DNA of 44,350 nt from a virus: the UHGV virus genome UHGV-0187309; one strand, given 5' to 3'. The notes below the pieces were generated by a model, which saw nothing but the letters and a program-made list of their open reading frames with translations, did not search any database and was not told the origin of the DNA. The position numbers and the translations under genes are program-made. Positions 17,060 through 40,371 of this stretch are shown in pieces (position 1 is the stretch's first letter; every line of letters begins with the position of its first letter).

Positions 17060-17144
17060 GATCATACTCTCCGTATGATCCGCACTGAAAAGACGACAAA
17101 GCGGCGACAAAACGGTTACACCGCACTCTATGGAGGTGAAAACT

Positions 17145-17648
17145 ATGGCGCGTAAGAACAAACGCCTGAAAACAGAATACCACAGAGGTCTCGGTTTTGA
17201 TCCGCGAAAGTATATGACTTCCTACTCCCACCAAACTCGCTGTGAATCAATTCCGACTCCCGACCGTGCTCCAAAGCGCGGCGATATCTGGTTTGCGCGG
17301 CTCGGCACACATCCGAATTCCAGTGTGCAGGGCGGCACCCGTCCCGTTATCATCATTTCTAACGACCTCGGCAACGAACACGCTGACACCGTCAATGTTG
17401 TGCCGATGACCAGACACCTGAAAAAGCCGGAGCTGCCTTGTCACACTCCGCTTTCTCCCGGCAGCATTACCGATAGCAGACAGCCGCTTGAACTGTCAAT
17501 GGTGCTGGCGGAGCAGCTCACAACTGTCAGCAAGAACGCACTTCGCTATTATGCAGGTCATATTTCCGATGACGAAGCTATGAACCGCATCGAAACCGCT
17601 GTTATTGCGCAGCTCAGTCTTGAAAGGAGATATTCCAAATGCCTGTGA
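17145..17648 (+). CDS. MazF/PemK-like endoribonuclease-fold protein with ~45 aa N-terminal extension
   Basis: KRGDIWFARLGTHPNSSVQGGTRPVIIISNDLGNEHADTVNVVPMT matches the PemK/MazF core pattern (GDIW...G.EQ.G.RPV.V.S...N....V.V.P.T); GGAGGTGA RBS. Confidence 0.65.
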   Translation: MARKNKRLKTEYHRGLGFDPRKYMTSYSHQTRCESIPTPDRAPKRGDIWFARLGTHPNSSVQGGTRPVIIISNDLGNEHADTVNVVPMTRHLKKPELPCHTPLSPGSITDSRQPLELSMVLAEQLTTVSKNALRYYAGHISDDEAMNRIETAVIAQLSLERRYSKCL

Positions 17649-20068: not shown

Positions 20069-20374
20069 AAGTAGACTTTTCTCCGTATTTACGCTGTTTT
20101 CCGCAGTTGGGGCAGCGTGGGGCAAGTTTTTTCGGTGGTTATTATTATTACTTCTCTTTATATATATTACTATTTTTACTTGCCCCTACTTGCCCCAAAT
20201 AAATAAAAACAATAGAAAAGATAAGAAGAATAGAGGATTTTCACTGATTTGAACCATTACCCATTTTGCACTGTTTTGAACCTTGCCCGATGCTGTCACT
20301 GACAAAGAGTGTGTAAGCGACAAAGCGTGGCAAGGTCAAAATCCAATAAACAATCATACAGGAGGAACACGAAT

Positions 20375-21469
20375 ATGAGAATCATTACTTCAGAACAGGT
20401 ATCCGCAGGACATCCCGACAAGATCTGTGACCAAATCGCGGATGCCATCGTGACAGACTGCCTTCAGCATGACCGCAGCAGTCGTGTTGCGATAGAGTGT
20501 CTTTTCAAGAACCGCTGTCTTGTGATCGCCGGTGAGCTGACCAGTACCCATGAGCCGGACTACAAGGCTCTGGTGCAGCAGGTGTTCGACCGTATCAACA
20601 ACGGCGGAGCTGAGAACAGCGATGCGGGACTTGACTACAAGCTGGACTTCACCGCCGATGATCTGGACATTGCGATTCTGGTCGATCACCAGAGCAATGA
20701 CATTGCGCTCGGTGTGAATGTCGGCGGTGCAGGAGATCAGGGTATGATGTACGGCTATGCGACCAACGAAACGCCGGAGATGCTCCCGATCCCCTTCGTG
20801 CTGGCTACCAGATTTCTGGAACTGCTGAAAGCCTACCCCTGCCGTATGCTGAAAGCCGATGCAAAGGCACAGGTCAGCTATGACTATGACAGCGGTCGCA
20901 TTACCACCTTCCTCTGCTCGGTGCAGCATACACACGATGTGGATGTTGAGGACTTCAAGCCCATCATCGAAAAGCTGATGGTGAGAACGGCAACCGAATA
21001 CGGGCTGAATACAGACTTTGCAAAGCTCGTCAACCCGACCGGCAGATTTGTCATAGGCAGTTCCTTTGCGGACTGCGGCGTTACCGGACGCAAGCTCGCC
21101 TGCGATACCTATGGCGGTATCGGGCATATCGGCGGCGGTGCAATGTCCGGCAAAGATCCGTCTAAGGTTGACCGCAGCGGCGCATATGCAGCAAGAAAAA
21201 TCGCAAGGGATATCGTCAGCGCCGGATATTCAGACAAGGCAGAGGTGCAGATCGCATACGCCATCGGTGTGGCAGAGCCCGTATCCGTGTATGTAGAGAC
21301 TTTTGGCACGGAGCATCAGGATACGGAGTTCATCAACCAGTATGTTCGTGAGAATTATGACCTCACGCCGAGGGGAATCATCGAAGGGCTGCATCTGCTC
21401 GATGTGGACTATAACGCCATTTCCGCATACGGACACTTCGGAAAACAGAACCTTCCGTGGGAACTATAA
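20375..21469 (+). CDS. metK: S-adenosylmethionine synthetase
   Basis: GHPDKICDQIADAI, GGGAMSGKDPSKVDRSGAYAAR and overall MetK architecture; AGGAGGA RBS. Confidence 0.9.
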   Translation: MRIITSEQVSAGHPDKICDQIADAIVTDCLQHDRSSRVAIECLFKNRCLVIAGELTSTHEPDYKALVQQVFDRINNGGAENSDAGLDYKLDFTADDLDIAILVDHQSNDIALGVNVGGAGDQGMMYGYATNETPEMLPIPFVLATRFLELLKAYPCRMLKADAKAQVSYDYDSGRITTFLCSVQHTHDVDVEDFKPIIEKLMVRTATEYGLNTDFAKLVNPTGRFVIGSSFADCGVTGRKLACDTYGGIGHIGGGAMSGKDPSKVDRSGAYAARKIARDIVSAGYSDKAEVQIAYAIGVAEPVSVYVETFGTEHQDTEFINQYVRENYDLTPRGIIEGLHLLDVDYNAISAYGHFGKQNLPWEL

Positions 21470-21495
21470 TAAATTTTTTGAAATTTTTTTTGATT

Positions 21496-21537
21496 GGATA
21501 CCCACAAAATGCCCTCTCCCACGACAGTATATGAGGG
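21496..21537 (+). repeat. Copy 2 of the ~43 bp direct repeat seen at 7669-7711
   Basis: GGATACCCACAAAATGCCCTCTCCCACGACAGTATATGAGGGG; lies between metK and the HNH gene. Confidence 0.7.
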
Positions 21538-21632
21538 GCGTTGTTCAGACCGACCACAAACACACTACAAACCAAGCGGGACTGACCGCCCCTATCACTA
21601 TGCAACACCACTGTGGAAAGGAGGCAGAGACA

Positions 21633-21992
21633 ATGCCAAGCAGACCAAAAACACCATGCAGACACCCCGGCTGTGCTGCGCTCGTACCTTATGGCACCAA
21701 GTATTGTGACAAGCACCGTTCTCTCCATCCGGAGGACACACGCTCCGCAGGCAGTCGAGGCTATGGCACCACATGGAACAAGACCCGCAAGCGTTACCTT
21801 GAGACGCATCCGCTGTGCGTGGAGTGCATGAAGCAAGGGCGCTATATCAAGGCGACCGATGTCGATCACATCATGCCGCACCGAGGAGACAATGTTCTCT
21901 TCTGGGATCAGAGCAACTGGCAGAGCCTCTGCCACCGACACCACAGCATCAAGACCCGAAATGAGGATCACACCCCCGAGTACAAGTACTAA
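21633..21992 (+). CDS. HNH endonuclease
   Basis: 119 aa; CxxC pairs plus DVDHIMPHRGDNVLFWDQSNWQSLCHRHH HNH core; AAAGGAGG RBS. Confidence 0.8.
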   Translation: MPSRPKTPCRHPGCAALVPYGTKYCDKHRSLHPEDTRSAGSRGYGTTWNKTRKRYLETHPLCVECMKQGRYIKATDVDHIMPHRGDNVLFWDQSNWQSLCHRHHSIKTRNEDHTPEYKY

Positions 21993-22450
21993 ACGCAAGC
22001 CACACTCACTATCGTTGCAGTTCAGGCAGTCTCAGGGGTGTACCTATGGGCGGGGCTGGGGGCTGGGGTTGCCCGCCGGGGCGGGTTCACTTCTCTGTGT
22101 GAAAGCGAACACAAGACCGTCGGCCCCTCTCGTGTGAAAAAACGCGAATTTGCAAGGGCCCCGGTCATTTGGGACCCTGACAGAGATATATTAGCTGTAA
22201 ATGAAATACTGTGCAGAAAACAGAAAACGCAGATTTTTCGTGCTTTTCCATATGCTGCCGTAGGAAACTGCGGCGGCAGGATACATACAGAGTTTCGTTA
22301 CAAAATGCACTGTAAAACGGCGAATTTACGTCAAAAAGCGATAGAATTAGCACATTTTTAGCGCCAAACCGCATTTTACAGTTTTATTCTTGGCGGAGCC
22401 CGTGTGGATACCGAAAACCGCATAAAATCAGAAGTTTCGAGGTGAATCAG

Positions 22451-22756
22451 ATGACAGATTCTCAAAAATATCAAGTACGAATTATGCGGATGCAGGGCAT
22501 TGGATATAAGGCAATAGCAAGGTCGCTGGGCTTGAAAACCAATCAGGTGCAGCTCTTTTGCAAGGCTCACGGTCTTGCAGGAGACAATCATCTGGTCGAT
22601 GTCAACTATCAAATCTGGTGTCAGCAAAACAACCGCTGTCCGGTCTGCGGTGCAAAGGTCACCCAGCCGAGGACAGGACGGCGAAAACGCTTCTGTTCCG
22701 GACGGTGCAGAACAAGATATTATCGTGAAAAACTGGAGGAATCAAAATGCTTGTAA
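22451..22756 (+). CDS. Small HTH plus zinc-ribbon DNA-binding protein
   Basis: HTH-like GIGYKAIARSLGLKTNQVQLF and Cys4 ribbon CPVCG...CSGRC; GAGGTGA RBS. Confidence 0.65.
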   Translation: MTDSQKYQVRIMRMQGIGYKAIARSLGLKTNQVQLFCKAHGLAGDNHLVDVNYQIWCQQNNRCPVCGAKVTQPRTGRRKRFCSGRCRTRYYREKLEESKCL

Positions 22757-22932
22757 CCGTTTTGTGCCTTACTTACATGATGATCATCATCCTGATCCAT
22801 GCGATCTGGATATCTTCGATCATCAAGCATGACGGGAAATGCCACTACAACGACTGCGGTCACTGTCCGTATGACGCCTGGTGTCCGATGCAGGAGGAAA
22901 AACATGACACTGACAGAGAACTTCATTCGTGA
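22747..22932 (+). CDS. Small hydrophobic/Cys-containing hypothetical protein
   Basis: 61 aa ORF overlapping neighbours; hydrophobic N-terminus LVTVLCLTYMMIIILIHAIWI; weak support. Confidence 0.35.
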   Translation: MLVTVLCLTYMMIIILIHAIWISSIIKHDGKCHYNDCGHCPYDAWCPMQEEKHDTDRELHS

Positions 22933-23389
22933 TGCGATACAGCTTGACAGCGGTGCAGAGGTCATGTACGGCAGCGATCAGATCTATGACACCTACCCCT
23001 GCCGCTTTCCGACTGTCGAGTTCCAGCTCATGGCAACGGATGCACTTGCGGAGGTCGCAGACCGCATCCGAATGGAGAAAGGCTATCTCCCGATGCATCC
23101 GAGGGACGGGCGCACGGACGATGTTGACAATGACGGCTGGTACGACTTTTATATCGGGATTAGCAAGCTCCCCAGCGATCATAAGGAATGCAAACTTGAC
23201 AGCAGCATTAGTTTCGTGGTCGTCAATTCAGATTCCGATGACAACGAGGATATGTACAGCATTGACCTGACTGAAACAGAGCAGGCGTATGTGTATGAAA
23301 TACTGAACCGGCAATGCCGGAGATATCACGGGAAGGACTGTGCCACGCTTCTGGCAGAGTCTGAAAAGGAGCTGATGGATACAGCATGA
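22904..23389 (+). CDS. Hypothetical protein
   Basis: 161 aa from ATG 22904 with CAGGAGGAAA RBS; stop overlaps nrdD start. Confidence 0.65.
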   Translation: MTLTENFIRDAIQLDSGAEVMYGSDQIYDTYPCRFPTVEFQLMATDALAEVADRIRMEKGYLPMHPRDGRTDDVDNDGWYDFYIGISKLPSDHKECKLDSSISFVVVNSDSDDNEDMYSIDLTETEQAYVYEILNRQCRRYHGKDCATLLAESEKELMDTA

Positions 23390-25527
23390 GGATAATAAAA
23401 CGAAACGGCGCTGAGGTGCCGTATGACTGCGAAAAGATACGAGCCGCAATATCAGCGGCAAATGATGAAGTGCCGGAGAAGATATCAGATACAGTGATCG
23501 GATTCATTGTCGGGAATGTAGAAAAACGCTGTCATGCCCTTGCAAGACCTGTCCATGTCGAAGAAGTCCAGGACATGGTTCTTGATGAACTGGACAAGGC
23601 CGAGGCTTACAAACTTGCACGGCACTACAGTGAGTACCGCCTGTGGCATGAGCAGCAGCGCCGTATGAACACCACCGACGGCAAGATTCTCAGTCTGCTG
23701 GAACGCAACAACGAGGAGGCAAAGCAGGAGAACGCCAACAAGAACCCCATCATCAACAGCACGCTCCGTGACTATATGGCGGGAGAAGTCAGTCGGGATA
23801 TATGTCGGCGCTTCCTGTTTCCGGAGGATGTGATCGCCGCCCATGATGACGGCATCATTCATGTGCATGACCTCGACTACATCGCAGAGCCGATGCACAA
23901 TTGCTGTCTGGTGAATCTGGAGGATATGCTTCAAAACGGCACAGTGGTATCCGGTACTATGATTGAGAAGCCGCACAGCTTTTCGACTGCCTGCAATATC
24001 GCAACGCAGATCATTGCACAGGTGGCATCAAATCAGTACGGCGGACAGACGGTATCTCTGGCACATCTTGCGCCTTTCGTGGATATCAGCCGACAGAAAA
24101 TTCGTGCCGAGGTGTTCGAGGATGTGAACTGCGACTGCGGTGCAAAGCTGTCTGAAAAAGAACTGGACTACATCGTAGAAAAGCGCGTGCGACGGGAAGT
24201 CAAGCGAGGCGTACAAACGATCCAGTATCAGATCAACACGCTCCTGACAACCAACGGTCAGACACCGTTCGTGACGGTATTCATGTATCTGGACGAGGCA
24301 CCGGAGGGACAGACCAGAGATGACCTTGCACTCATTATCGAGGAAACGCTGCTTCAGCGTATCGAGGGCGTGAAAAACGAGAAGGGCGTGTGGATCACAC
24401 CGGCATTCCCGAAGCTGATCTATGTTCTCGATGAGGACAACATTCAGCCCGGTTCCAAGTATTACTACCTCACCGAGCTTGCGGCGAAGTGTACCGCAAA
24501 GCGTATGGTTCCCGACTATATTTCCGCAAAGGTGATGAAACGTCTGAAGGGTGATGTGTATGCCTGCATGGGCTGCCGGTCATTCCTGACACCTTCTGCC
24601 GACCACAAATACTACGGCAGATTCAATCAGGGAGTCGTCACGATCAACCTTGTGGATGTTGCGTGTAGCGCAGGCGGAGACGAAGATAAATTCTGGCAGC
24701 TTCTTGATGAACGCTGCGAACTGTGCCGCAAGGCTCTGATGTGCAGGCATGAACGTCTGAAAGGTACGCCGTCCGATGTTGCACCGATCCTCTGGCAGTA
24801 TGGCGCACTTGCGAGACTGAAGAACGGTGAGGTCATTGACAATTTGCTGTATAACAACTACAGCACGATCTCCCTCGGCTATGCCGGCATCGCGGAAATG
24901 ACCTACCGCATGACAGGCTGTTCGCATACAGAGTCGGAGGGAAAATCCTTCGCCATTTCAGTGATGCATTTTCTGAACGATAAGTGCAGCAAATGGAGAG
25001 CTGAAAGCAATATCTCGTTCTCGCTATACGGCACGCCGATGGAATCTGTGACCTACAAATTTGCAAAGTGTCTGCAAAGGCGGCATGGTATTATTCCGCA
25101 CGTCACGGACAGGAGCTACATTACCAACAGCTATCATGTCCATGTGACAGAGCCGATCGACGCCTTCAGCAAGTTGTCCTTTGAAGCGGAGTTTCAGGAG
25201 CTTTCTCCCGGCGGTGCGATTTCGTATGTAGAAGTGCCGAACCTTCAGAACAACATTCCTGCGGTTCTGGCACTCATGAAACACATTTACGAAACGATTT
25301 TATATGCTGAACTCAACACTAAGTCCGACTACTGTCAGGCTTGTGGCTATGACGGGGAGATGCAGATCGTGGAAGAGGACGGCAAGCTGATCTGGGAATG
25401 CCCGAACTGCGGCAACCGTGACCAGCGGACAATGAATGTCTGCCGCCGCACCTGCGGATATCTCGGAACGCAGTTCTGGAATCAAGGGCGCACACAGGAG
25501 ATCGCAGAAAGGGTGATGCACCTGTGA
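23386..25527 (+). CDS. nrdD: Anaerobic ribonucleoside-triphosphate reductase (class III RNR)
   Basis: N-terminal ATP-cone, C-terminal Zn ribbon CQACGY...CPNCG, glycyl-radical motif RRTCGYLG. Confidence 0.9.
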   Translation: MRIIKRNGAEVPYDCEKIRAAISAANDEVPEKISDTVIGFIVGNVEKRCHALARPVHVEEVQDMVLDELDKAEAYKLARHYSEYRLWHEQQRRMNTTDGKILSLLERNNEEAKQENANKNPIINSTLRDYMAGEVSRDICRRFLFPEDVIAAHDDGIIHVHDLDYIAEPMHNCCLVNLEDMLQNGTVVSGTMIEKPHSFSTACNIATQIIAQVASNQYGGQTVSLAHLAPFVDISRQKIRAEVFEDVNCDCGAKLSEKELDYIVEKRVRREVKRGVQTIQYQINTLLTTNGQTPFVTVFMYLDEAPEGQTRDDLALIIEETLLQRIEGVKNEKGVWITPAFPKLIYVLDEDNIQPGSKYYYLTELAAKCTAKRMVPDYISAKVMKRLKGDVYACMGCRSFLTPSADHKYYGRFNQGVVTINLVDVACSAGGDEDKFWQLLDERCELCRKALMCRHERLKGTPSDVAPILWQYGALARLKNGEVIDNLLYNNYSTISLGYAGIAEMTYRMTGCSHTESEGKSFAISVMHFLNDKCSKWRAESNISFSLYGTPMESVTYKFAKCLQRRHGIIPHVTDRSYITNSYHVHVTEPIDAFSKLSFEAEFQELSPGGAISYVEVPNLQNNIPAVLALMKHIYETILYAELNTKSDYCQACGYDGEMQIVEEDGKLIWECPNCGNRDQRTMNVCRRTCGYLGTQFWNQGRTQEIAERVMHL

Positions 25528-25991
25528 ATTACTGCGGTCTGAATAAAAACGATATTGCCAACGGTGAAGGTGTGCGTGTGTCGCTGTTCGTGTCCGGATG
25601 CCGGAATCACTGCATCGGCTGTCACAATCCCGAAGCATGGGATTTCGGCTACGGTCAGCCGTTTACCAAAGAAACCGAAAAAGAGATCATCGAAGCCCTG
25701 CGTCCTTCTTGGATACAGGGCATTTCTATACTCGGCGGTGAACCCTGCGAGGAGGAAAACGAGCGTGTTCTGATACCGTTTCTGAAACGGATAAAACTTG
25801 AGTCTCCGAATTCGGACACTTGGCTGTTCTCCGGATACACCTACGAAATGCTTCAGAATGATGAGATTCTCAAATACATTGATGTGCTTGTGGACGGGCC
25901 GTTCCTGATGGAACAGAAGAACATCTCCCTTGCATTCCGGGGCAGTCGGAATCAACGAATCCTCCGATTAAGAAATGGGGTGCGTGTATGA
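25524..25991 (+). CDS. nrdG: Anaerobic RNR activating protein (radical SAM)
   Basis: CRNHCIGCHN radical-SAM-type Cys motif; size and position immediately after nrdD. Confidence 0.85.
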   Translation: MNYCGLNKNDIANGEGVRVSLFVSGCRNHCIGCHNPEAWDFGYGQPFTKETEKEIIEALRPSWIQGISILGGEPCEEENERVLIPFLKRIKLESPNSDTWLFSGYTYEMLQNDEILKYIDVLVDGPFLMEQKNISLAFRGSRNQRILRLRNGVRV

Positions 25992-26305
25992 GAGCCAGAC
26001 TGAAACCGCCGGGAGATGCTGTCCGCTGCGATGCCTGCGGATGTGCCTTTGTGCCGGAGCCGAAAATGCAGCGTGAGGGAGAGATCGAATACAGCTTCCT
26101 CAACTGTGATTACTGTGGCAAAGCGTATATCGTGTCTGTGACCGATGCCGCACTCCGCCGGAGCATCCGCAAGTACCGGACGCTTGCCGAAAAGCTGAAG
26201 GGCAAGCCGTTGAGTGAAGATACGCTCCGTGAGGTCACGGCGCTGAAGGATGCGAACACAAAAAGAGCCGCAGAGCTGCGGCAGATGTATATTCGGGAGG
26301 GATGA
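25988..26305 (+). CDS. Small zinc-ribbon hypothetical protein
   Basis: CDACGC...CDYCG Cys4; translationally coupled between nrdG and the methyltransferase. Confidence 0.6.
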   Translation: MRARLKPPGDAVRCDACGCAFVPEPKMQREGEIEYSFLNCDYCGKAYIVSVTDAALRRSIRKYRTLAEKLKGKPLSEDTLREVTALKDANTKRAAELRQMYIREG

Positions 26306-26306
26306 G

Positions 26307-27578
26307 ATGAAAACAGCAGAACTTCGCATGATCCCTGTCTCGGAGCTGAAGCCTGCGGAATACAATCCGCGTAAAAAGCTGAAGCCCGGCGACAAGGAAT
26401 ACGAGAAGATCAAAAACAGCATCGAGGAATTCGGCTTTGCCGACCCGCTTGTTGTCAACGCCGACATGACGATCATCGGCGGACACCAGAGACTGACCGT
26501 AGCAACGGCGCTCGGTTACACGGAAGTTCCGTGTGCGGTGGTGGACATCGACAAAGTCCGTGAGAAGGCACTGAACATTGCGCTGAATAAGATCACGGGT
26601 GCATGGGACGAGAATCTTCTGGCGGAACTTCTCGAAGATATCCAGAGCAGCGATTTCGACCTCGGCAAGACCGGCTTTGATCCGCCGGAGATCGAGCAGC
26701 TTTTCAATGCCGTTCATGACAAGCAGGTCAGTGAGGACAGCTTCGATGTGGAGGAGGAGCTGCAAAAGCCGACATTCTCGCAGCCGGGAGATATCTGGAT
26801 TCTCGGCAGGCACAAAGTCATCTGCGGCGATAGTACAATCGCAGAGACATACACCAAGCTGATGGACGGGCAGAAGGCAAACCTCGTCCTGACCGATCCT
26901 CCGTACAATGTGGATGTTGAGGAAACTGCCGGAAAGATCATGAATGACAACATGAGCGACAGTGATTTCTATAGCTTCCTGCTTTCCGCTTACAAGTGTA
27001 TGTATGACAGTCTTGCCGATGACGGCAGCATTTATGTATGGCACGCCGACACCGAGGGGCTGAACTTCCGCAGAGCGTTCAAGGAGGCAGGCTTCCAGCT
27101 TTCTGGCTGCTGTATCTGGAAGAAGAATTCTCTGGTGCTGGGCAGAAGCCCCTATCAGTGGATTCATGAGCCGTGTCTCTTCGGGTGGAAACAGAAGGGC
27201 AAGCATCAGTGGTATGCCGACCGCAAGCAGACAACTGTATGGGAGTATGACAAGCCCAAGAGCAGCCCCGATCATCCGACCACAAAGCCTATCCCGCTGA
27301 TGGCGTACCCGATCAAGAACAGCACCATGACCAACGGCATCGTTCTCGATCCGTTCCTCGGCAGCGGTTCGACACTGATCGCCTGTTGCGAGACAGACCG
27401 TGTTTGTCGGGGCATCGAGCTTGATCCGAAGTTCGTGGATGTCATTGTCAAGAGGTATCTGGCATGGTGCCAAGAGAAGCAGACCGCCGAGGTCGCATAT
27501 GTCATTCGTGATGGACAGAAGCTCACCTATGAGGAGGCTATCGCAGCGATGCCGCAGGGCGGTGATGCAGTTGAGTGA
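26307..27578 (+). CDS. ParB-like nuclease-domain / DNA amino-methyltransferase fusion (N6-adenine or N4-cytosine)
   Basis: N-terminal ParB-like segment (IPVSELKPAEYNPRK...GGHQR); methyltransferase motif IV TDPPY and motif I DPFLGSGST near the C-terminus. Confidence 0.85.
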   Translation: MKTAELRMIPVSELKPAEYNPRKKLKPGDKEYEKIKNSIEEFGFADPLVVNADMTIIGGHQRLTVATALGYTEVPCAVVDIDKVREKALNIALNKITGAWDENLLAELLEDIQSSDFDLGKTGFDPPEIEQLFNAVHDKQVSEDSFDVEEELQKPTFSQPGDIWILGRHKVICGDSTIAETYTKLMDGQKANLVLTDPPYNVDVEETAGKIMNDNMSDSDFYSFLLSAYKCMYDSLADDGSIYVWHADTEGLNFRRAFKEAGFQLSGCCIWKKNSLVLGRSPYQWIHEPCLFGWKQKGKHQWYADRKQTTVWEYDKPKSSPDHPTTKPIPLMAYPIKNSTMTNGIVLDPFLGSGSTLIACCETDRVCRGIELDPKFVDVIVKRYLAWCQEKQTAEVAYVIRDGQKLTYEEAIAAMPQGGDAVE

Positions 27579-28350
27579 TGTGAAGTGTGTATTATATCAC
27601 GACAACTTCCAAAACTTCAAAGGCTACAGCATCCCGAAAGCGCAGCTCGTCATCGCTGACATCCCGTACAACATCGGCGGCGATTTTTACGCAAGCCGCC
27701 CCGACTGGTATGTGGACGGTGACAATCAGAACGGCGAAAGCAGCAAAGCACATAAGGCGGCATTCCATACAGATTACAGCTTTAACATTGCTGAATACTT
27801 CGCCTTCTGCAACCGACTGCTCAAAAAAGAGCCGCCAAAAGGTGAAAAGGATGCGCCGTGCATGATCGTGTTCTGTGCCTTTCAGCAGATACCGGAAGTC
27901 ATCCGGCAGGCGGAGAAATACGGCTTCAAGAAGTATCAGTTTTTGTGTTTTATGAAGAATTACAGTCCGCAGGTGTTGAAGGCGAACATGAGGATCGTGG
28001 GCGCAACGGAATACGCTCTGGTGCTGTACCGGGGCAAGCTGCCGAAATTCCGAAACACGGATGAGAATGGCAAACACCACATGATCTTCGACCATTTTGA
28101 CTGGATGCGGGACGGCAAGGATATCCCGAAGATACATCCTTCGCAGAAGCCGGTAAATCTCCTGAAACGGCTGATCGGGATATTTACCGACGAGGGTGAT
28201 GTGGTCATCGATCCCTGCGCCGGTTCCGGCTCAACGCTGCGTGCGGCGAGGGAGCTTGGCAGACACAGCTACGGCTTTGAAGTCAGCCGGGATTTTTATA
28301 ATAAAGCCTGTGAACTGATGCTTGGGGAGGATACCGATGACGAAGCATGA
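27565..28350 (+). CDS. DNA amino-methyltransferase (N6-adenine or N4-cytosine)
   Basis: ADIPYN (DPPY-like motif IV), C-terminal DPCAGSGST motif I; start ATG 27565 overlapping the upstream gene. Confidence 0.8.
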   Translation: MQLSDVKCVLYHDNFQNFKGYSIPKAQLVIADIPYNIGGDFYASRPDWYVDGDNQNGESSKAHKAAFHTDYSFNIAEYFAFCNRLLKKEPPKGEKDAPCMIVFCAFQQIPEVIRQAEKYGFKKYQFLCFMKNYSPQVLKANMRIVGATEYALVLYRGKLPKFRNTDENGKHHMIFDHFDWMRDGKDIPKIHPSQKPVNLLKRLIGIFTDEGDVVIDPCAGSGSTLRAARELGRHSYGFEVSRDFYNKACELMLGEDTDDEA

Positions 28351-28582
28351 ATGTGCGGTCGTGACCGCTTACACAGAGATTTCTATGCTCAAGGGCGACG
28401 ATCTGAAATATCTGTATGACTATCTTTCCGGCTTTATCGGCAGACCGGTGTATACACACGAGATTTCTGCTGTGGTGATGGCTTACAGAGAGCAGATCAG
28501 GGAGGACTTCCTCGATCTGTGCAGGAACGCAAAGGAGGCGGATGATGGATCAGAAACACTTGACTCTCGGCAGCTTATTTGA
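28337..28582 (+). CDS. Small hypothetical protein
   Basis: 81 aa ORF from ATG 28337; overlaps both neighbouring genes; no recognisable motif. Confidence 0.45.
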   Translation: MTKHECAVVTAYTEISMLKGDDLKYLYDYLSGFIGRPVYTHEISAVVMAYREQIREDFLDLCRNAKEADDGSETLDSRQLI

Positions 28583-31145
28583 CGGCTCCGGTGGCTTTCC
28601 GCTTGGCGGCATCCTTGCAGGGATCGAGCCGAAGTGGAGCAGCGAAATTGAACCATTCCCGGTGCTTGTCACGCACAAGCGGCTGCCGCAGGTGAAGCAC
28701 TACGGCGATGTATCCAAACTGAACGGAGCAGAGCTTCCGCCGGTGGATATCATCACCTTCGGCAGCCCGTGTCAGGATCTGTCCATAGCGGGCAAGCGCG
28801 CCGGAATCCATGACGGTGATCGGTCAAACCTGTTCTTTCAGGCGATCCGCATCATCAAAGAAATGAGGGATGCAACAAATGGACGATATCCGCGATACTG
28901 CGTCTGGGAAAATGTCCCCGGCGCTTTCTCATCCAACGGAGGAAACGACTTCAAGGCTGTCCTCGAAGCAGTTATCGGAGTTAAAGAAAAAGGGATCGAG
29001 GTGCCTGCGCCTGAAAATCACAGATGGGCAAAATCAGACGTATATCTGGGAGACGGATGGAGCGTGGCTTACCGAGTTTTCGATGCTCAATACTGGGGTG
29101 TCCCCCAACGCAGAGCAAGAATCTACCTTGTCGCAGATCTTGCTGGTGGAAGTGCCGGAGAAGTATTATTTAAGTCCGAAGGCGTGTCTGGGTATACTCC
29201 GCAGGGCTTCCGTGCGTGGCAAGGAGCTGCCGGAGGTGCTGAAGAAGGCACTGGAGAGACAGGCGGGCGGTCTGACGCTGGAGGTGGAACCCTCTGCCTG
29301 AATACACAGGGCAACAGCGGCGTCGGCATCACCGAGAACAAGGCTCTCGCACTGGTCGCACAGGATCATGGCAATCATCCGGCTGTGCTTCATGCGGTCG
29401 GTATCGACGGCTACAATGCTGCGGTCACCGATGATACGGCAGCAACGCTTGGTGTGAACTGCGGAATGTCCACAGGCAGAAACGGTGTCCTGCAGGCGGC
29501 GGGATTTTCCACAGAACACAGTGCAAAAGCAAGGAGCATCGGCTACGAGGAAGAGGTATCTCCCACACTTCGAGCCGGTGTTGTTCCGGCGGCAATGGAG
29601 TTATATGAAAATCATGGGCAGGACAGCAGATTCAGAGGACCTTTGGATGTAGCACAGCCTGTGACTGCTACCTACGGCATGGGCGGCAACAATCAGCCGC
29701 TTGTGGTAGAGAACAATCCCACGGACGGCAGAGCGAAGATCAATCCCGACGGTGTGTTTCAGACGCTCTGCGGACGAGCCGGAACAGGCGGAAACAACAC
29801 GCCGCTTGTTGCTGAACCGGTCACGCTGAAAATCAGGTCGGGATGTGAGGGCGGTGGCAAGGGTGCTTTATGGCAGACCGACAAGTCTGCTACGCTCGGC
29901 ACAAACAATGACCAGAGTGTATTTGTTCCGTTCGTCAAGGGAACACGTCCGCACTCTGCTGAAGAGGGGCAAACATGGAAACCCGGCGAGGTCGCCAATA
30001 CACTGAATACCTTTGATGTCGGTGAAAGTCGCTGCAATGAACTTGTGGTGGAAGAGCCGCAGATCAGGGCTTTCGGTGTATGCAGCAAGCATTCCAATGC
30101 GATGATGTCCGACAATCCGCACAGCGGATTCTATGAGGCGACCACAAGCAGAACGCTCGACCAAAGTGGTGGAAATTCTGTGACATCGAATCAGGGCGGC
30201 ATCTGCGTGGTAGCACCTGCGCCTGAAACCTTCGATGTGCGTTTCACATCAGACGGTACAAAAAACGCTCGTGGGCATTGCTATCCGACAGACATCTCCC
30301 GATGCCTTGATACGAGCGAGGGATCGCCAGACTCGAATCACGGCGGTGTCGCTGTGGTGGCTCTTGAACCGGGGGCTGCATCACGTGTCGGCGGTCATGT
30401 ATACAGTGACGGCAAAAGCGGTACGCTTCGAGCCAATGCCGGCGATAATCAGCAGGCTGTTGTGGTCGCCGAGCCGGAGACCTATGCTCTGCAAGGCTCG
30501 ATGATCGGTCGTGCCGACAAGAACGGTCCGCAGGGTGATGGCATCAACGAGGATGTGTGCTTTACGCTCAATACATCGGACAGACACGCCATTGCCGCAC
30601 CTGATCCGTCCTTCACAATTTCCCGCGACAACCATTTTGCCGTTTCGGAGGATGTATCCGTTACAGCCGTGGCAAGAGGCCCTGCGGCAGTCGCAGCACC
30701 GGCAGACCACTATTGCACCAGTAAGAATTCGCATCATACGGTCGCCGCCCATGAGCAGGCAAACACGCTGGTCGCTTCCGACTGGAAGGATCCGCCGCTT
30801 GTGAACGACCTTCCGAATGACGAGCCAGTATATATCGTTCGCCGCTTGACTCCGGTTGAGTGCGCCAGATTGCAGGGATTCCCTGACTGGTGGTGTGCCG
30901 ACCTTGCAATTACTGATCCTTCCGATGAGGAGATCGCCTTCTGGACGGAGGTCTGGGAGACATGGCGGCAGGTCACAAATCCCAAGGGCAAGCCGAAAAC
31001 GGAAAAGCAGATCCGCAAATGGCTGGCTGATCCGTACACGGATTCAGCGGAGTACAAGCTGTGGGGCAACGGTGTCTCAGAGCCGGTCGTATACTTCGTG
31101 CTTTCCGGCATCGCATGGGCAGCGCAGAGAGATACACAAAAGTGA
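28542..31145 (+). CDS. DNA cytosine-5 methyltransferase with an unusually long, internally repetitive variable (target-recognition) region
   Basis: Motif I LFDGSGGF, motif IV GSPCQDLS, motif VI ENVPG in first ~130 aa; motifs IX/X (RRLTPVECARLQGFPDWW ... LWGNGVSEPVVYF) only in the last ~100 aa; ~600 aa in between with recurring TL-containing modules. True start may be ATG 28545. Confidence 0.85.
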   Translation: MMDQKHLTLGSLFDGSGGFPLGGILAGIEPKWSSEIEPFPVLVTHKRLPQVKHYGDVSKLNGAELPPVDIITFGSPCQDLSIAGKRAGIHDGDRSNLFFQAIRIIKEMRDATNGRYPRYCVWENVPGAFSSNGGNDFKAVLEAVIGVKEKGIEVPAPENHRWAKSDVYLGDGWSVAYRVFDAQYWGVPQRRARIYLVADLAGGSAGEVLFKSEGVSGYTPQGFRAWQGAAGGAEEGTGETGGRSDAGGGTLCLNTQGNSGVGITENKALALVAQDHGNHPAVLHAVGIDGYNAAVTDDTAATLGVNCGMSTGRNGVLQAAGFSTEHSAKARSIGYEEEVSPTLRAGVVPAAMELYENHGQDSRFRGPLDVAQPVTATYGMGGNNQPLVVENNPTDGRAKINPDGVFQTLCGRAGTGGNNTPLVAEPVTLKIRSGCEGGGKGALWQTDKSATLGTNNDQSVFVPFVKGTRPHSAEEGQTWKPGEVANTLNTFDVGESRCNELVVEEPQIRAFGVCSKHSNAMMSDNPHSGFYEATTSRTLDQSGGNSVTSNQGGICVVAPAPETFDVRFTSDGTKNARGHCYPTDISRCLDTSEGSPDSNHGGVAVVALEPGAASRVGGHVYSDGKSGTLRANAGDNQQAVVVAEPETYALQGSMIGRADKNGPQGDGINEDVCFTLNTSDRHAIAAPDPSFTISRDNHFAVSEDVSVTAVARGPAAVAAPADHYCTSKNSHHTVAAHEQANTLVASDWKDPPLVNDLPNDEPVYIVRRLTPVECARLQGFPDWWCADLAITDPSDEEIAFWTEVWETWRQVTNPKGKPKTEKQIRKWLADPYTDSAEYKLWGNGVSEPVVYFVLSGIAWAAQRDTQK

Positions 31146-31518: not shown

Positions 31519-31857
31519 ATGAAAATAGCAATTATTGGCTCACGGGGACTTCATGTGAATGACCTTGAACGGTATCTTCCGGAAGATGTCACAGAAATCG
31601 TCAGCGGAGGAGCAAGGGGCATTGATTCGGATGCGCGGGCATACGCACAGGCACACGGCATTCCGCTGAAGGAGTTTCTGCCGGATTATGAACGCTTCGG
31701 CAGGAGCGCCCCGCTGAAACGGAATCTTGAGATCATCGCTTATGCCGATGTGGTGCTTGCATTCTGGGACGGACAGTCACGCGGCACGAAATATGTGATA
31801 GACCATTGCCGGGAACAGCACGTTCCGGTCAGGGTTTTCGCACCGAGAAAGAAATAG
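31519..31857 (+). CDS. SLOG-superfamily (DprA/LOG-like, DUF2493-like) small Rossmann-fold protein
   Basis: KIAIIGSRG ... VSGGARGIDSDA ... AFWDGQSRGT pattern shared with DprA/LOG-type domains; extended -10 TGGTATAAT promoter just upstream. Confidence 0.65.
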   Translation: MKIAIIGSRGLHVNDLERYLPEDVTEIVSGGARGIDSDARAYAQAHGIPLKEFLPDYERFGRSAPLKRNLEIIAYADVVLAFWDGQSRGTKYVIDHCREQHVPVRVFAPRKK

Positions 31858-32089: not shown

Positions 32090-32998
32090 ATGGAAATCAA
32101 GTTCAATATTGAAAAGAGCCAGCGCAAGGCACTGGCACAGAAAATCGGCGAGCTGACAGGAGCAGAGGTCAAGTACCTCGGTGTACCGGGCTGCAGATAC
32201 CAGATCGACTTCTTCACCCTGGACAAAAACGCAGTCCTCAGTTTCAGCGACCGCATCGACACAGATATCGTGGAGAAGGTACTGAATGGGCTTGCAGAGG
32301 CAGGATATGAAAGCAAAACAGTAGCACCGCCGGAAGAAACGGATGCTTCGGCTGAATCAGAGCCGGATATCCCTGACGAACCGAGCAGCGGATTTCCGCT
32401 GCTCGCAAGCATCAGCTTCCCGATTGCAGAGCACACGGTGCAGAGCCTTACAAACCTTATCTGCATGATCCACTCCCGCGGCGCACTTCTCAGCAAGGCG
32501 ACCGGCGGACAGTTCTTCGCAGACAAGAGCCTCGCCGATGCGATCCTCGATGACAAGACCTTCCGCAGCATCCACGAGCTTATCGCCTACATCAGAGTAT
32601 GGGAGGAAACGAATCCCGAACTGAAGGGCATCCGTTTCGCCGATGACAAGCTGATCTTTGACGGCTTCGGTGCAGCGCAGGATGCCGAAACGGTGCAGAC
32701 CTTCACCAAGCTCGCCACAGCCATGAACAGGATGGCGATCACGCAGAAACGTGTGCAGGCAAAGGATGTCGATGACAGCAACGAAAAGTACGCACTCCGC
32801 ATCTGGCTGATCCGCCTTGGGCTGAACGGCGCAGACTGCAAGGTTGACCGCAAGCGCCTCATGGCTCCGCTTTCCGGACACACCGCATTCCGCAACGATG
32901 CGGAGCGTGTGCGCTGGGAGGCAAAGCAAAAGGCAAAGCGTGATGCTGCCAGAACCGAACTGACCGAGGAGGATGAAAACGATGCAGTTTCCGAATGA
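32090..32998 (+). CDS. Hypothetical protein
   Basis: 302 aa; ACGGAGGTAA RBS; no recognisable motif. Confidence 0.75.
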   Translation: MEIKFNIEKSQRKALAQKIGELTGAEVKYLGVPGCRYQIDFFTLDKNAVLSFSDRIDTDIVEKVLNGLAEAGYESKTVAPPEETDASAESEPDIPDEPSSGFPLLASISFPIAEHTVQSLTNLICMIHSRGALLSKATGGQFFADKSLADAILDDKTFRSIHELIAYIRVWEETNPELKGIRFADDKLIFDGFGAAQDAETVQTFTKLATAMNRMAITQKRVQAKDVDDSNEKYALRIWLIRLGLNGADCKVDRKRLMAPLSGHTAFRNDAERVRWEAKQKAKRDAARTELTEEDENDAVSE

Positions 32999-33230
32999 AA
33001 GACAGCTCAGAGCCTTGCGGGAGCGTTATCCCGCAGGCACCCGCATCCGACTGAAGCATATGGATGACCCTTATGCACCCGTACCGCCCGGCACGGTCGG
33101 CGAGGTTCAGATGGTTGATGACGGCGGCAACATACACATGGTCTGGGAGAATGGCAGAACGCTCTCCCTTATAGACGGTGTCGATGATTTCCAGGTCATT
33201 TCTGACCGCAATGGGGGCTCCGGAAAATAA
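32982..33230 (+). CDS. DUF4314-like small protein
   Basis: PAGTRIRLKHMDDPYAPVPPGTVGEVQMVDDGGNIHMVWENGRTLSLIDGVDDF matches the DUF4314 pattern as I recall it; start at ATG 32982. Confidence 0.65.
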   Translation: MQFPNERQLRALRERYPAGTRIRLKHMDDPYAPVPPGTVGEVQMVDDGGNIHMVWENGRTLSLIDGVDDFQVISDRNGGSGK

Positions 33231-33341
33231 GAGATCCTATTCCATTGTATCCGAGTATACCATAGAATTTCAAGTATATCAAGTGTACACATACACCAGA
33301 TATGAGCAATGTATTTTCCTCGATATTCTGTGGTTTTAGCG

Positions 33342-33402
33342 GCTTGCTATATCCTCCGAAAGACGGTAATATGTGACACAACGGAAGGGCAAACGCCCAC
33401 CG
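33342..33402 (+). promoter_or_regulatory. Cassette promoter P2 (CTTGCT-19-TAATAT) plus conserved leader hairpin
   Basis: TAATATGTGACACAACGGAAGGGCAAACGCCCACCGAAAA leader. Confidence 0.6.
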
Positions 33403-33427
33403 AAAAACCGAATCGGAGGATACCAAA

Positions 33428-34372
33428 ATGACTGAGAAAACCGCACAGCAGATCAACAGAATGAAGGAGCAGACCATCGGGGTTGAGATCGAGATGAACA
33501 ACATCACCCGCAAGGCTGCCGCAAAGCTCGCCGCCGACTTCTTCGGCACGAACCGCTACGAGGACACGGCCTGCCGCAACGGCTACGAAACCTACAGTGC
33601 TTGGGACGCACAGGGACGCGAGTGGAAATTCCAGAAGGACGTCAGCATCGCAGGCCCCGACAGCGAAAAGTGCGAACTGGTCACACCGATCCTGCACTAC
33701 GCAGACATCGAAACCCTGCAGGAGCTTGTGAGAAGGCTCAGAAAGGCAGGAGCGCGCAGTGATTACACGCGGGGATGTGGAGTCCACTGCCACATTGGAG
33801 CCCAGGGACACACACCGCAGAGCCTCAGAAACCTCGCAAACCTTATGGCAAGCCACGAAACCCTGATCGCCGAGGCAATCAGAGTAGACCAGAGCAGAAT
33901 GCACCGCTACTGCAGAACAGTTGACCCGAGATTCCTTGAACAGCTCAACCGCAAAAAGCCCACCACGATGGCACAGCTTGCGGACATCTGGTACGGCGCA
34001 CAGGGCTGCGAATACGGCAGAACCCACCACTACAACGACAGCCGCTATCACATGCTCAACCTCCACGCTACCTTCACCAAAGGCACGGTCGAGTTCAGAC
34101 TTTTCCAGTTCGCACCGCCTTCCAACGGCAAGCAGAACGGGCTCCACGCAGGCAAGCTCAAGAGCTACATTCAGCTCTGCCTCGCAATGAGCCAGATGGC
34201 AAAGGACCTGCGGAGCGCCAGCCCCAAGGAACAGCAGAAGGAAAACAAAAAGTTCGCCATGCGGACTTGGCTGATGAGAATGGGATTCATCGGGGATGAA
34301 TTCGCAACGGCGAGAGAGGTCCTCACTGAGAACCTTACGGGCGACAACAGCTTCCGCTTCGGCAGATCTTAA
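33428..34372 (+). CDS. Putative amidoligase (glutamine-synthetase-like fold, Amidoligase_2-type)
   Basis: 314 aa; GVEIEMNN (ExE motif) and GCGVHCHIGAQGH (HxH motif) as in GS-like amidoligases of phages and conjugative elements; family call from memory. Confidence 0.7.
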   Translation: MTEKTAQQINRMKEQTIGVEIEMNNITRKAAAKLAADFFGTNRYEDTACRNGYETYSAWDAQGREWKFQKDVSIAGPDSEKCELVTPILHYADIETLQELVRRLRKAGARSDYTRGCGVHCHIGAQGHTPQSLRNLANLMASHETLIAEAIRVDQSRMHRYCRTVDPRFLEQLNRKKPTTMAQLADIWYGAQGCEYGRTHHYNDSRYHMLNLHATFTKGTVEFRLFQFAPPSNGKQNGLHAGKLKSYIQLCLAMSQMAKDLRSASPKEQQKENKKFAMRTWLMRMGFIGDEFATAREVLTENLTGDNSFRFGRS

Positions 34373-34636
34373 AGGCCTGCCCTTCGGGGCGGAAGAACAA
34401 GCGGAACGGCACGGCGGCGCACACAGCCGCCACGGTCTCGGCTCTCGCCTCGGTCGGTGCTTCTGCTTCGCAGAGGTTGCCACTGGCAACCCGCACCCCC
34501 GTGTGTGGCGGAAAGGGTATCCTCCGAATCGGTATCCCATCTCAGTCAACCGCGCCACACAGCGCAAATGTAGGCAAGGCATAAAATGCACAACATACGG
34601 CACAGAATCGCCCTCGATGATCTGTTCATTTACCCG

Positions 34637-34666
34637 CTTGATAATGCCGCCGAAATGAGTTAACAT
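34637..34666 (+). promoter_or_regulatory. Cassette promoter P3 (CTTGAT-18-TAACAT)
   Basis: Same -35/18/-10 geometry as other cassette promoters; precedes ATG 34706. Confidence 0.5.
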
Positions 34667-34705
34667 AGCACTACCGCAAGGAAAAAACGCAAAGGAGAAC
34701 ATAGC

Positions 34706-35173
34706 ATGAACAAGAAAAAATACTACATAGCCTACGGCAGCAACCTCAACATCCGCCAGATGCGATTCCGCTGCTCAGGCGCAAAGCCCATCGGCATTTC
34801 CGCGATTCCTGACTACGAACTGCTCTTCAAGGGCAGCAAGACGGGAGCGTACCTCACCATCGAGCCGAAGGACGGCGGGCTTGTTCCGGTCGCCGTGTGG
34901 GAAGTGACAGCCGACGATGAGAAGCACCTCGACATCTACGAGGGCTACCCGAACTTCTACTACAAGAAGGAAGTCCGCCTGCCAATCAGGCTGGCAAACG
35001 GCAAGACCAAAAAGGTCACGGCATTTGTCTACATCATGCACGAGGAGCGTGAGATTGCGATCCCGTCAATGACCTACATCCGCACCTGCGAGGAAGGCTA
35101 CCGCAACTTCGGCTTCGACACCAAGTTCCTTGATGCCGCCTACGAGATCAGCGCAAAGGAGGTACAGCGATGA
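34706..35173 (+). CDS. Gamma-glutamyl cyclotransferase-like (GGCT/AIG2-like) protein
   Basis: N-terminal YYIAYGSNLN signature and YEGYP Glu-containing motif. Confidence 0.8.
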   Translation: MNKKKYYIAYGSNLNIRQMRFRCSGAKPIGISAIPDYELLFKGSKTGAYLTIEPKDGGLVPVAVWEVTADDEKHLDIYEGYPNFYYKKEVRLPIRLANGKTKKVTAFVYIMHEEREIAIPSMTYIRTCEEGYRNFGFDTKFLDAAYEISAKEVQR

Positions 35174-39897: not shown

Positions 39898-40371
39898 ATG
39901 GCTCAGAGAGGCAGAAAACCGACGCCGACAGCAATCAAGGAACTGGAAGGCAATCCCGGAAAACGACCGCTGAATGATGCAGAGCCGAAGCCGGAACGCA
40001 AGGCACCGCCCTGTCCGAAGTGGCTGGAGCCCGAAGCAAAAAAGGAATGGCGCAGGCTGTCAAAGCAACTGGAGCAGATTGGTGTGCTGACCGAGGTCGA
40101 TCAGGCGGCATTCGCATCCTACTGTCAGGCATACGCACGATGGAAAGAAGCCGAGGAATTCATGACCCAGCACGGCACGATCGTAAAAACAAAATCAGGT
40201 TACTGGCAGCAGGTTCCGCAGGTATCCATTGCGCAAACTTATCTGAAGATCATGAACAAGATCGCAGAGCAGTTTGGCCTGACCCCGGCGGCAAGAAGCC
40301 GTATCACTGCCGGCGCAGATATGAAAAACGCTGCCGTTGACGATATGGATGAACTTCTCGGAGGTGGCTGA
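39898..40371 (+). CDS. Terminase small subunit (P27-family-like)
   Basis: MAQRGRKPTPTAIKELEGNPGKRP N-terminus and FGLTPAARSRI near the C-terminus; immediately upstream of and overlapping terminase large subunit. Confidence 0.8.
   Translation: MAQRGRKPTPTAIKELEGNPGKRPLNDAEPKPERKAPPCPKWLEPEAKKEWRRLSKQLEQIGVLTEVDQAAFASYCQAYARWKEAEEFMTQHGTIVKTKSGYWQQVPQVSIAQTYLKIMNKIAEQFGLTPAARSRITAGADMKNAAVDDMDELLGGG

Follow-up and report, generated by a model that had tools for sequence, protein, structure and literature searches.

In the Ca. Heliusvirales, a C5 cytosine DNA methyltransferase (MTase; K00558) and the S-adenosylmethionine (SAM) synthetase MetK (K00789) are encoded by 67% and 58.9% of genomes, respectively, and both are listed as putative auxiliary metabolic genes (AMGs) (de Jonge et al. 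2024; PMC11283538). The same paper, which defined the group, regards the common DNA MTase as a likely anti-restriction device and proposes no mechanism for the AMGs (PMC11283538). Elsewhere, dcm and metK were the two commonest AMGs in a study of gut phages in fecal microbiota transplantation (PMC12180181), and an anaerobic-digester study gives the role of phage SAM synthetase as undetermined (PMC13644194). The pairing of metK with a C5 MTase is already known at the level of annotation, and the interpretation of it that we examine here is not original to the DNA that we studied. This is the virus genome UHGV-0187309, a stretch of 44,350 nucleotides (hereafter the window), of which positions 20375-31145 carry metK together with three DNA MTase genes and the anaerobic ribonucleotide reductase genes nrdDG.

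Functional work on a phage-encoded MetK comes from the Streptococcus agalactiae prophage 12/111phiA, where deletion and complementation of metK changed how the host autoaggregates, forms chains and builds biofilm, and where the authors themselves note secondary mutations that confound these results (PMC8223999); we found no other functional work on phage-encoded MetK in the literature. The SAM lyase of phage T3 provides a second point of reference, since it cleaves SAM and inhibits MetK, defeating Type I restriction-modification (R-M) and BREX (bioRxiv 10.1101/2023.02.27.530186). T3 SAM lyase and phage MetK both manipulate the host SAM pool in an R-M/BREX setting, but the proteins are non-homologous and the strategies opposite, T3 destroying the SAM that the phage of the window would make.

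The multispecific C5 MTases of Bacillus phages have 2-4 active target-recognition domains (TRDs), with one specificity established for each TRD. These enzymes (M.SPRI, M.Phi3TI, M.Rho11sI, M.H2I and M.SPBetaI, studied by Trautner and colleagues) are phage-borne orphans with one catalytic core, as is the C5 MTase of the window; in both cases motif VIII is separated from motif IX by an enlarged region of short, adjoining TRDs or TRD-like units that have a T-[LV] core and can be exchanged as modules.

Set against these systems, the interval 20375-31145 as a whole seems best explained, if by no means securely, as a section of the early/replication operon given over to DNA modification and nucleotide supply, in a temperate, heliusvirus-type siphophage that infects anaerobic Clostridia of the gut. 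For metK itself, the best-supported reading, to which we incline with modest confidence, is that phage-made SAM feeds anti-restriction self-methylation of the phage DNA, with MetK as an optional booster.

An intact phage-type SAM synthetase

The metK gene occupies 20375-21469 on the plus strand, begins at an ATG preceded by an AGGAGG ribosome-binding site, and encodes a 364-amino-acid (aa) protein of a phage-type clade. The Pfam S-AdoMet synthetase N, M and C domains all match, the protein scores 385.5 bits against the TIGR01034 equivalog model (cutoff 309.4), and it aligns end to end with solved bacterial (E. coli-type) MetK structures (E = 1e-90). The motifs GHPDK, GAGDQG, DAK(S/A)QV, DxGxTGRK and GGGAxSGKDPSKVDRS are all conserved. 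Across 68 orthologues from related viral contigs the dN/dS of metK is 0.09, similar to that of the primase (0.10) and of the ParB-domain MTase described below (0.09). The sequence-only reading, which had proposed that the phage supplies its own methyl donor, named loss of conserved residues in a catalytically dead MetK as one finding that would undo it; judged by its sequence, MetK instead appears intact and under purifying selection. It is at least 53% identical to other phage and prophage copies and at most 46% identical to cellular MetKs, including those of likely host families. The existence of a distinct phage clade that is under purifying selection indicates a long-standing phage gene and not a recent passenger.

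This divergence from cellular enzymes could also be expected if MetK were a counter-defence or competition device, an enzyme beyond the reach of host regulation and of factors that deplete SAM or inhibit MetK, for instance a SAM lyase from a competing phage or a SAM-depletion defence that the host might have. SAM is a known battleground, as the T3 enzyme illustrates (bioRxiv 10.1101/2023.02.27.530186), but we saw no sign of such a threat in these hosts and found no match for MetK in PADLOC or among other defence models. A higher SAM level should sooner help than hinder those restriction systems that depend on SAM (Type I/III and BREX), and we consider this explanation highly improbable.

The surroundings of the gene bear on a further possibility, that metK serves lysogenic conversion and that its expression from the prophage would alter SAM-dependent host physiology (methyl cycle, autoinducer-2, surface) to the benefit of the lysogen. 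The S. agalactiae phenotypes are the main argument for it, and a terminator-like hairpin on the plus strand at 20088-20121, between the primase stop and metK, is a possible transcription-unit boundary that would allow metK to be transcribed separately. The hairpin comes from a consensus scan only, in which the total of terminator-like sites did not exceed the shuffled expectation, and there is no convincing sigma-70 promoter upstream of metK. The gene is also embedded in a co-oriented replication/modification operon, far from the repressor module at 1-4 kb, which is not the typical position of a moron, and the authors' own caveat about secondary mutations applies to the S. agalactiae mutants (PMC8223999). 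Lysogenic conversion as the role of this MetK thus seems to us quite unlikely. No SAM riboswitch or other RNA element was found upstream of metK when the whole window was searched with Rfam at gathering thresholds.

Phage-type MetK is also found in bacterial genomes, namely in Oribacterium parvum (NZ_KE148312.1; 58% identity) and in a Clostridia metagenome-assembled genome (53%). Using tblastn we found no homologues of the window MTases or replication genes beside either copy, and these may belong to a different mobile element or be domesticated. Matches to 'phage metK' in Helicobacter were rejected as phage genes, being the host metK that flanks a prophage integration hotspot. In six NatCom heliusvirus records (PV036427, PV036428, PV036430, PV036444, PV036445 and PV036448) MetK is labeled 'peptidase' (for example L082:11998-13044), with the result that a text search of these genomes misses metK.

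Methyltransferase genes follow metK in viral genomes

Relatives of the window's MetK are present on 441 IMG/VR contigs. We examined 80 metK loci, 45 of which have at least 8 kb of downstream sequence and so are informative for MTases. A homologue of one of the window MTases lies downstream of metK in 43 of these 45 loci, and a C5 MTase in 32. As a control we inspected 52 cellular metK loci, none of which has a window-MTase homologue within 10 kb. An HNH gene follows metK in 77 of the 80 viral loci, and the order metK-HNH-(nrdDG)-ParB-MTase-(MTase)-C5-MTase recurs both in hundreds of IMG/VR contigs and in the Streptococcus phi1207.3/Javan phages. With the same order present in dozens of independent viral contigs, the clustering of these genes is not due to chance.

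MetK matches were obtained in 138 GenBank phage records (127 at E ≤ 1e-30), 90 of them from Streptococcus phages (phi1207.3, phi-SsUD.1 and the Javan series). The MetKs of the Streptococcus phi1207.3, phi-SsUD.1 and Javan prophages and of Erysipelothrix phage phi1605 are 55-58% identical to that of the window, and the gene order through TerS, TerL and portal is common to all of them. In Javan499, as in the window, primase/helicase and SNF2 genes are followed by those for SAM synthetase, the ParB-adenine MTase, the C5 MTase and terminase; phi1605 has metK-HNH-ParB-MTase. These Streptococcus and Erysipelothrix phages differ from the window in lacking nrdDG and the second amino-MTase and in having an ordinary C5 MTase of 422 aa with a variable region of a single size; the hosts of the phi1207.3/Javan type are aerotolerant streptococci. 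Within the Ca. Heliusvirales, NatCom_34192 carries the cargo order of the window (metK-HNH-ParB-MTase-C5-MTase-amidoligase-GGACT-TerS-TerL), and the GenBank NatCom genomes have the same replication markers, a DUF2800 exonuclease, an Enc34-type single-stranded DNA-binding protein (SSB), PolA and an SNF2 helicase. What sets the window apart from the GenBank heliusviruses is that metK and nrdDG occur in it together with three MTases, among them a C5 MTase that ranks with the longest. A third setting is provided by the Faecalibacterium phage FP_Brigit, which has an unrelated RecT/DnaC-type replication module and in which a ParB_N protein and, ~2 kb downstream of metK, a DAM-like/GNAT DNA-modification protein are encoded after metK.

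This distribution is also the evidence on which to judge a purely historical linkage, in which metK, HNH, nrdDG and the MTases would be independent cargo at a permissive site between the replication and packaging modules. The interval is indeed variable, nrdDG, the second amino-MTase, DUF7736 and the C5 MTase each being present or absent among close relatives, and the nearby inteins and HNH genes indicate mobile-element traffic. Independent cargo is nevertheless hard to reconcile with a metK that adjoins a DNA-modification gene on three different phage backbones, with the excess of downstream MTases over cellular metK loci, and with purifying selection on metK equal to that on the primase. We regard an accidental association as decidedly improbable.

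nrdDG as an optional cassette

The nrdD gene (23386-25527, plus strand) encodes a class III (anaerobic) ribonucleoside-triphosphate reductase with an ATP-cone. It matches Pfam NRDD (4e-192), Gly_radical and ATP-cone and scores 903 bits against NF006732 (cutoff 657), and both the C-terminal glycyl-radical motif RTCGY and the zinc ribbon CQACG...CPNCG are present. The adjacent nrdG (25524-25991, plus strand) encodes the radical-SAM activase of NrdD, matching Pfam Fer4_12 and Radical_SAM and TIGR02491 (175 bits, cutoff 126) and carrying the CX3CX2C motif as CRNHCIGC. This is the same dNTP (deoxynucleoside triphosphate)-supplying pair of glycyl-radical NrdD and radical-SAM NrdG that is found in T4 and in other phages with class III ribonucleotide reductases (RNRs). 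The expectation from nrdDG of an anaerobic host agrees with the hosts of the nearest phages, which are Oscillospiraceae, Acutalibacteraceae and Ruminococcus.

Unlike the T4-type RNR genes, nrdDG in the window forms an optional cassette within a modification region, accompanied by a conserved acidic protein of 161 aa (pI 4.3; 22904-23389, plus strand) that travels with it. nrdD is present in 28 of the 45 informative metK loci and nrdDG is absent from the other 17, in which the MTases begin 0.8-4 kb after metK. It follows from these absences that nrdDG and the acidic protein are an optional insertion between metK-HNH and the MTases, and for the same reason we rejected nrdDG as the main explanation for the presence of metK.

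These observations weigh on the idea that MetK is a general SAM-homeostasis AMG, replacing or supplementing host MetK for polyamine synthesis, RNA and protein methylation and radical-SAM enzymes including NrdG, with no special tie to DNA methylation. Surveys class MetK plainly as a cysteine/methionine-metabolism AMG (PMC11283538, PMC12180181, PMC13644194). In the window there are other helpers of nucleotide metabolism (nrdDG and a thymidine kinase at 2502-3059), the SAM-using NrdG is encoded 4 kb downstream of metK, and many MTase-bearing relatives lack metK. Against this, metK is found beside MTases even where nrdDG is missing, and beside a DNA-modification gene in FP_Brigit with its unrelated replication module, and we found no other SAM-consuming enzyme in the window. 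The demand of NrdG itself is negligible, radical-SAM chemistry consuming SAM stoichiometrically at about one SAM per NrdD activation. On this evidence a general metabolic role is unlikely, though it is the alternative that we would take most seriously.

Two amino-methyltransferases

The first amino-MTase (26307-27578, plus strand; the ORF, or open reading frame, runs from 26250, with a likely start at 26307) is a ParB_N-fused beta-class N6/N4 enzyme, with Pfam matches to ParB_N and N6_N4_Mtase, to phrog_498 (1e-183) and to the PADLOC model PDLC03229. Motif IV, DPPY, lies N-terminal to FLGSG, which is the beta-class order; DPPY is kept in 48 of 51 orthologues and the dN/dS is 0.09.

The second amino-MTase (27565-28350, plus strand; ORF from 27400, likely start 27565) is a beta-class protein of 261 aa that matches Pfam N6_N4_Mtase (6e-27), its closest solved structure being a DpnA-like adenine MTase (6e-16). 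It has motif I as CAGSG and a variant motif IV, DIPY in place of DPPY, shared without change by all 26 orthologues examined. Beta-class enzymes work as dimers, and this protein may be active despite the altered motif or may serve as a partner subunit without catalysis of its own.

Searches of the neighbouring ORFs with Pfam, PHROGs and PADLOC revealed no restriction endonuclease partner near the MTases. A Type II R-M system was rejected on this ground, and the MTases of the window are to all appearances orphans.

A C5 methyltransferase with tandem recognition-like modules

The third MTase gene (28542-31145, plus strand) encodes an orphan C5 cytosine MTase of 867 aa with one catalytic core, identified by Pfam DNA_methylase (PF00145; 3e-37) and by the PADLOC orphan MTase model PDLC03715 (856 bits). 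The conserved motifs occur in the canonical order, I (FxGxGG) at residue 13, IV (PCQ) at 76, VI (ENV) at 123, VIII (QxRxR) at 189, IX at 767 and X (GNG) at 842. Motifs I-VIII thus span aa 13-193 and motifs IX-X aa 767-844, with a variable region of ~570 aa between them. Close homologues of 750-866 aa number more than 8000.

Alignment with relatives divides the variable region into 13 tandem TRD-like modules of 33-55 residues (aa 243-760; 29268-30821, plus strand), most of which are built around an S/A/N-T-L core and close with a hydrophobic VV[AE][EP] strand. Proteins otherwise more than 80% identical differ in having or lacking seven of these units as entire blocks, and one unit is found at a different position in the enzyme of another phage. 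The units are related to each other, with profile-profile comparison by hhalign pairing U8 with U9 and U4 with U5 at 96% probability and U1 with U13 at 91%; the best score among real units was 42.4, against a maximum of 15.3 in a column-shuffled control. Residual DNA repeats that are 63-82% identical join U4/U5, U8/U9, U11/U12 and U1/U13. A BLASTP self-comparison found no internal repeats in the variable region, and the repeats are visible only by profile-profile comparison and as low-stringency DNA repeats.

The modules form part of a very large family. The variable region alone matches 3,275 clusters at 50% identity (189 at E ≤ 1e-30), in 2-9 separate stretches and up to 1,236 aa, and hidden Markov models (HMMs) of the units find them in differing orders and combinations in the 50%-cluster representatives. 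Pooled dN/dS values are 0-0.17 for the 13 units and 0.14-0.18 for the catalytic core. With all 13 units at or below 0.17, none resembles a decaying pseudo-domain. By comparison, a Gly/Ala/Glu-rich linker just before the modules (aa 201-242; window 29142-29267) has a pooled dN/dS of 1.04, near neutral, within constrained surroundings. One homologue of the C5 MTase, of 1159 aa, contains Hint/Hom_end domains.

The core of U11, CFTLNTSDRHAIA, resembles AFTVNTIDRHGVA in one TRD of M.SPBetaI (HMM i-E 5e-6), and the U3 core SPTL resembles LSPTLTT in another TRD of the same enzyme. The two proteins are distant, with catalytic cores only 21% identical, and differ in scale, the variable region being ~570 aa with ~13 modules in the window's enzyme and ~185 aa in M.SPBetaI (a 443-aa protein). 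Judged by sequence, the C5 MTase appears to carry the design of the Bacillus-phage multispecific MTases to an extreme, and in the searchable literature we found no description of a C5 MTase on a scale of ~13 modules.

A stronger proposal would be that the enzyme is hyper-multispecific, with ~13 functional cassettes each adding a methylated motif and being duplicated, lost and shuffled among gut phages to give a combinatorial anti-restriction repertoire, for which lineages such as that of the window would keep a phage-specific MetK to pay the SAM bill. The family concerned comprises more than 3000 clusters at 50% identity, and its variable regions reach ~790 aa. We put this proposal forward only tentatively, as more likely wrong than right.

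Avoidance of palindromic sites

Across the whole window, 6-mer palindromes have a median observed/expected ratio (O/E) of 0.42, compared with 1.0 for other 6-mers (p = 7e-15), and 4-mer palindromes a median O/E of 0.75, compared with 1.02 for other 4-mers (p = 1e-7). GGCC is found 23 times where 172 occurrences are expected (O/E 0.13), CCWGG 7 times where 53 are expected, and CTAG has an O/E of 0.17. CCATGG, GGCGCC and GTGCAC are absent from the window, and GATC, AGCT and TCGA are at expectation. Such strong avoidance of palindromes indicates that the genome is under strong restriction pressure. It also suggests that the phage combines site avoidance with methylation, in which case the sites that are not avoided are candidate targets of its MTases.

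Genome context and neighbouring genes

The window is the genome, or most of the genome, of a temperate siphophage that is probably of the Ca. Heliusvirales type. A lysogeny side on the minus strand holds a LexA-like repressor (3065-3955), an SRAP peptidase (1852-2487) and the thymidine kinase. A long plus-strand operon encodes a sigma-like factor, a DUF2800 exonuclease, an Enc34-type SSB, PolA, DUF932, an SNF2 helicase, a PemK/MazF-like protein and a D5-type primase-helicase before reaching the interval 20375-31145, 3' of which lie genes for a SLOG/YpsA-like protein, DUF4314, Amidoligase_2, GGACT, the small and large terminase subunits and the portal. Six Ca. Heliusvirales markers are present (DUF2800 exonuclease, Enc34 SSB, PolA, SNF2 helicase, TerL and portal), and the protease and major capsid protein would be expected past the end of the window. 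In the defining study, placement in the heliusvirus clade goes by TerL, with an HMM bit-score above 700 (PMC11283538). The top matches of the portal are all NatCom Ca. Heliusvirales genomes, at 55-57% identity. No close phage relative was found in GenBank, the top DNA matches being fragments ~72% identical and none exceeding ~73%; nor was any MetK more than 73% identical found in species-representative genomes. There are no tRNA genes in the window.

The genes assigned to the interval by the sequence-only reading (metK, nrdD and nrdG, the ParB-domain amino-MTase, the second amino-MTase and the 867-aa C5 MTase) were all recovered as uninterrupted plus-strand ORFs. Where that reading counted two HNH endonucleases, we find one (21600-21992, plus strand; Pfam HNH, phrog_144 at 6e-36), directly 3' of metK and with a dN/dS of 0.10. 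Searches of 20375-31145 with Pfam, PHROGs, NCBIfam and tblastn using five different HNH proteins returned no second one. The remaining small ORFs of the interval are zinc-ribbon or uncharacterised proteins, namely a small basic zinc-ribbon protein (22451-22756, plus strand; phrog_2308), a second small zinc-ribbon protein (25988-26305, plus strand; phrog_1315) and a small DUF7736 protein (28337-28582, plus strand; Pfam DUF7736 at 2e-12).

Several features of the flanking genes deserve mention in their own right. The large terminase (40371-43037, plus strand) is a protein of 888 aa with a LAGLIDADG_3 domain (aa 303-369) N-terminal to the ATPase and nuclease domains, likely reflecting an intein or homing-endonuclease insertion, and the TerL of Erysipelothrix phi1605 is annotated as intein-containing. 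The DNA polymerase ORF (10602-13487, plus strand; 961 aa) matches Pfam DNA_pol_A only over residues 683-814, which points either to an insertion or to an N-terminal part that is long and divergent. Between the SNF2 helicase and primase genes, a protein with the PemK/MazF-like toxin fold (17130-17648, plus strand; Pfam 9e-22) is encoded with no obvious antitoxin; of 80 related loci, 66 keep it in this place, and the annotation of NatCom_34192 reads 'MazF-like growth inhibitor'. Genes for DUF4314, Amidoligase_2 and a gamma-glutamyl cyclotransferase-like protein (GGACT) occupy 32973-35173 on the plus strand, after the MTases and before the terminase. The same trio occurs in NatCom_34192 and in many related loci, and its composition suggests an uncharacterised peptide or metabolite ligation system. 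The SLOG/YpsA-like protein is encoded at 31519-31857 (plus strand), and Bacillus phage SPbeta shares with the window both a YpsA-like gene (yoqJ) and an SRAP gene (yoqW), in addition to a multispecific C5 MTase and an RNR.

Discussion

In the mechanism that we favour, active MetK would make SAM from methionine and ATP in the infected cell during lytic replication, while the phage expresses its three orphan MTases (the ParB-domain amino-MTase, the second amino-MTase and the multi-module C5 MTase). New phage DNA would be methylated at many sites, shielding progeny from the range of Type II-like restriction systems that potential hosts may possess. MetK would keep the SAM pool and the ratio of SAM to S-adenosylhomocysteine from limiting this burst of methylation, as an optional booster and not an obligatory component. 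nrdDG would be a separate optional cassette for dNTP supply under anoxia, its NrdG drawing on SAM in no more than stoichiometric amounts. The steps that we infer are the action of the MTases on phage DNA, a specificity for each module, a SAM pool that becomes limiting, and a link between SAM supply and methylation load.

A rough estimate gives an idea of the possible demand. With ~13 specificities, ~200 sites per 44 kb, two strands and 100-200 genome copies, a single infected cell would require ~10^6 methyl groups. A typical bacterial SAM pool is ~10^5 molecules, as measured for E. coli metabolites. On these figures demand would be several times the pool, which lends support to a need for additional SAM.

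A number of observations weigh against SAM supply for self-methylation or limit its scope. Some ~19 GenBank heliusviruses have the long C5 MTase, and only one of them (NatCom_42228) also has metK; since the long enzyme mostly occurs without metK, heavy methylation evidently runs on host SAM alone, and metK is an optional booster at most. Conversely, metK also occurs with ordinary C5 MTases of 420-430 aa and is thus not tied to the hyper-modular enzyme. The association is therefore asymmetric, metK being nearly always accompanied by MTases and MTases often lacking metK. GGCC and CCWGG, which are classic C5-MTase targets, are strongly avoided and not tolerated, so that methylation does not cover all threats. 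One of the three MTases has the variant DIPY motif, and the modules of another are without structural support, an AlphaFold2 model of the C5 MTase built with 32 close homologues being unusable (mean predicted local distance difference test score, pLDDT, of 28.9). nrdDG is outside the conserved core. A conserved gene order in a phage operon can, moreover, reflect an inherited module in place of functional coupling, and the phenotype of the S. agalactiae metK deletion points to a role in the lysogen.

Taken together, the proposal of the sequence-only reading that this phage makes SAM to support an anti-restriction self-methylation stands in part. It is upheld by the intact MetK, the orphan MTases, their recurrence after viral but not cellular metK and the avoidance of palindromes, and has to be narrowed in that metK is not required and nrdDG is optional.

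The usual interpretation of phage metK and dcm as AMGs of cysteine and methionine metabolism is probably misleading. Synteny argues that phage MetK belongs with DNA modification, and the AMG tables of virome studies would then read differently. The feature of this locus most worth following up is the C5 MTase, with its ~13 selected and shuffled modules. Were the modules active, they would constitute a natural library of portable TRDs for 5-methylcytosine (m5C), of use in epigenetic tools. If the proposal of ~13 functional cassettes were true, no natural MTase would offer a more extreme case of modular engineering of DNA recognition, and the enzyme would be a ready source of new m5C specificities. 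For the phages themselves, activity of each module would mean that one gene lets temperate gut phages cross many restriction barriers.

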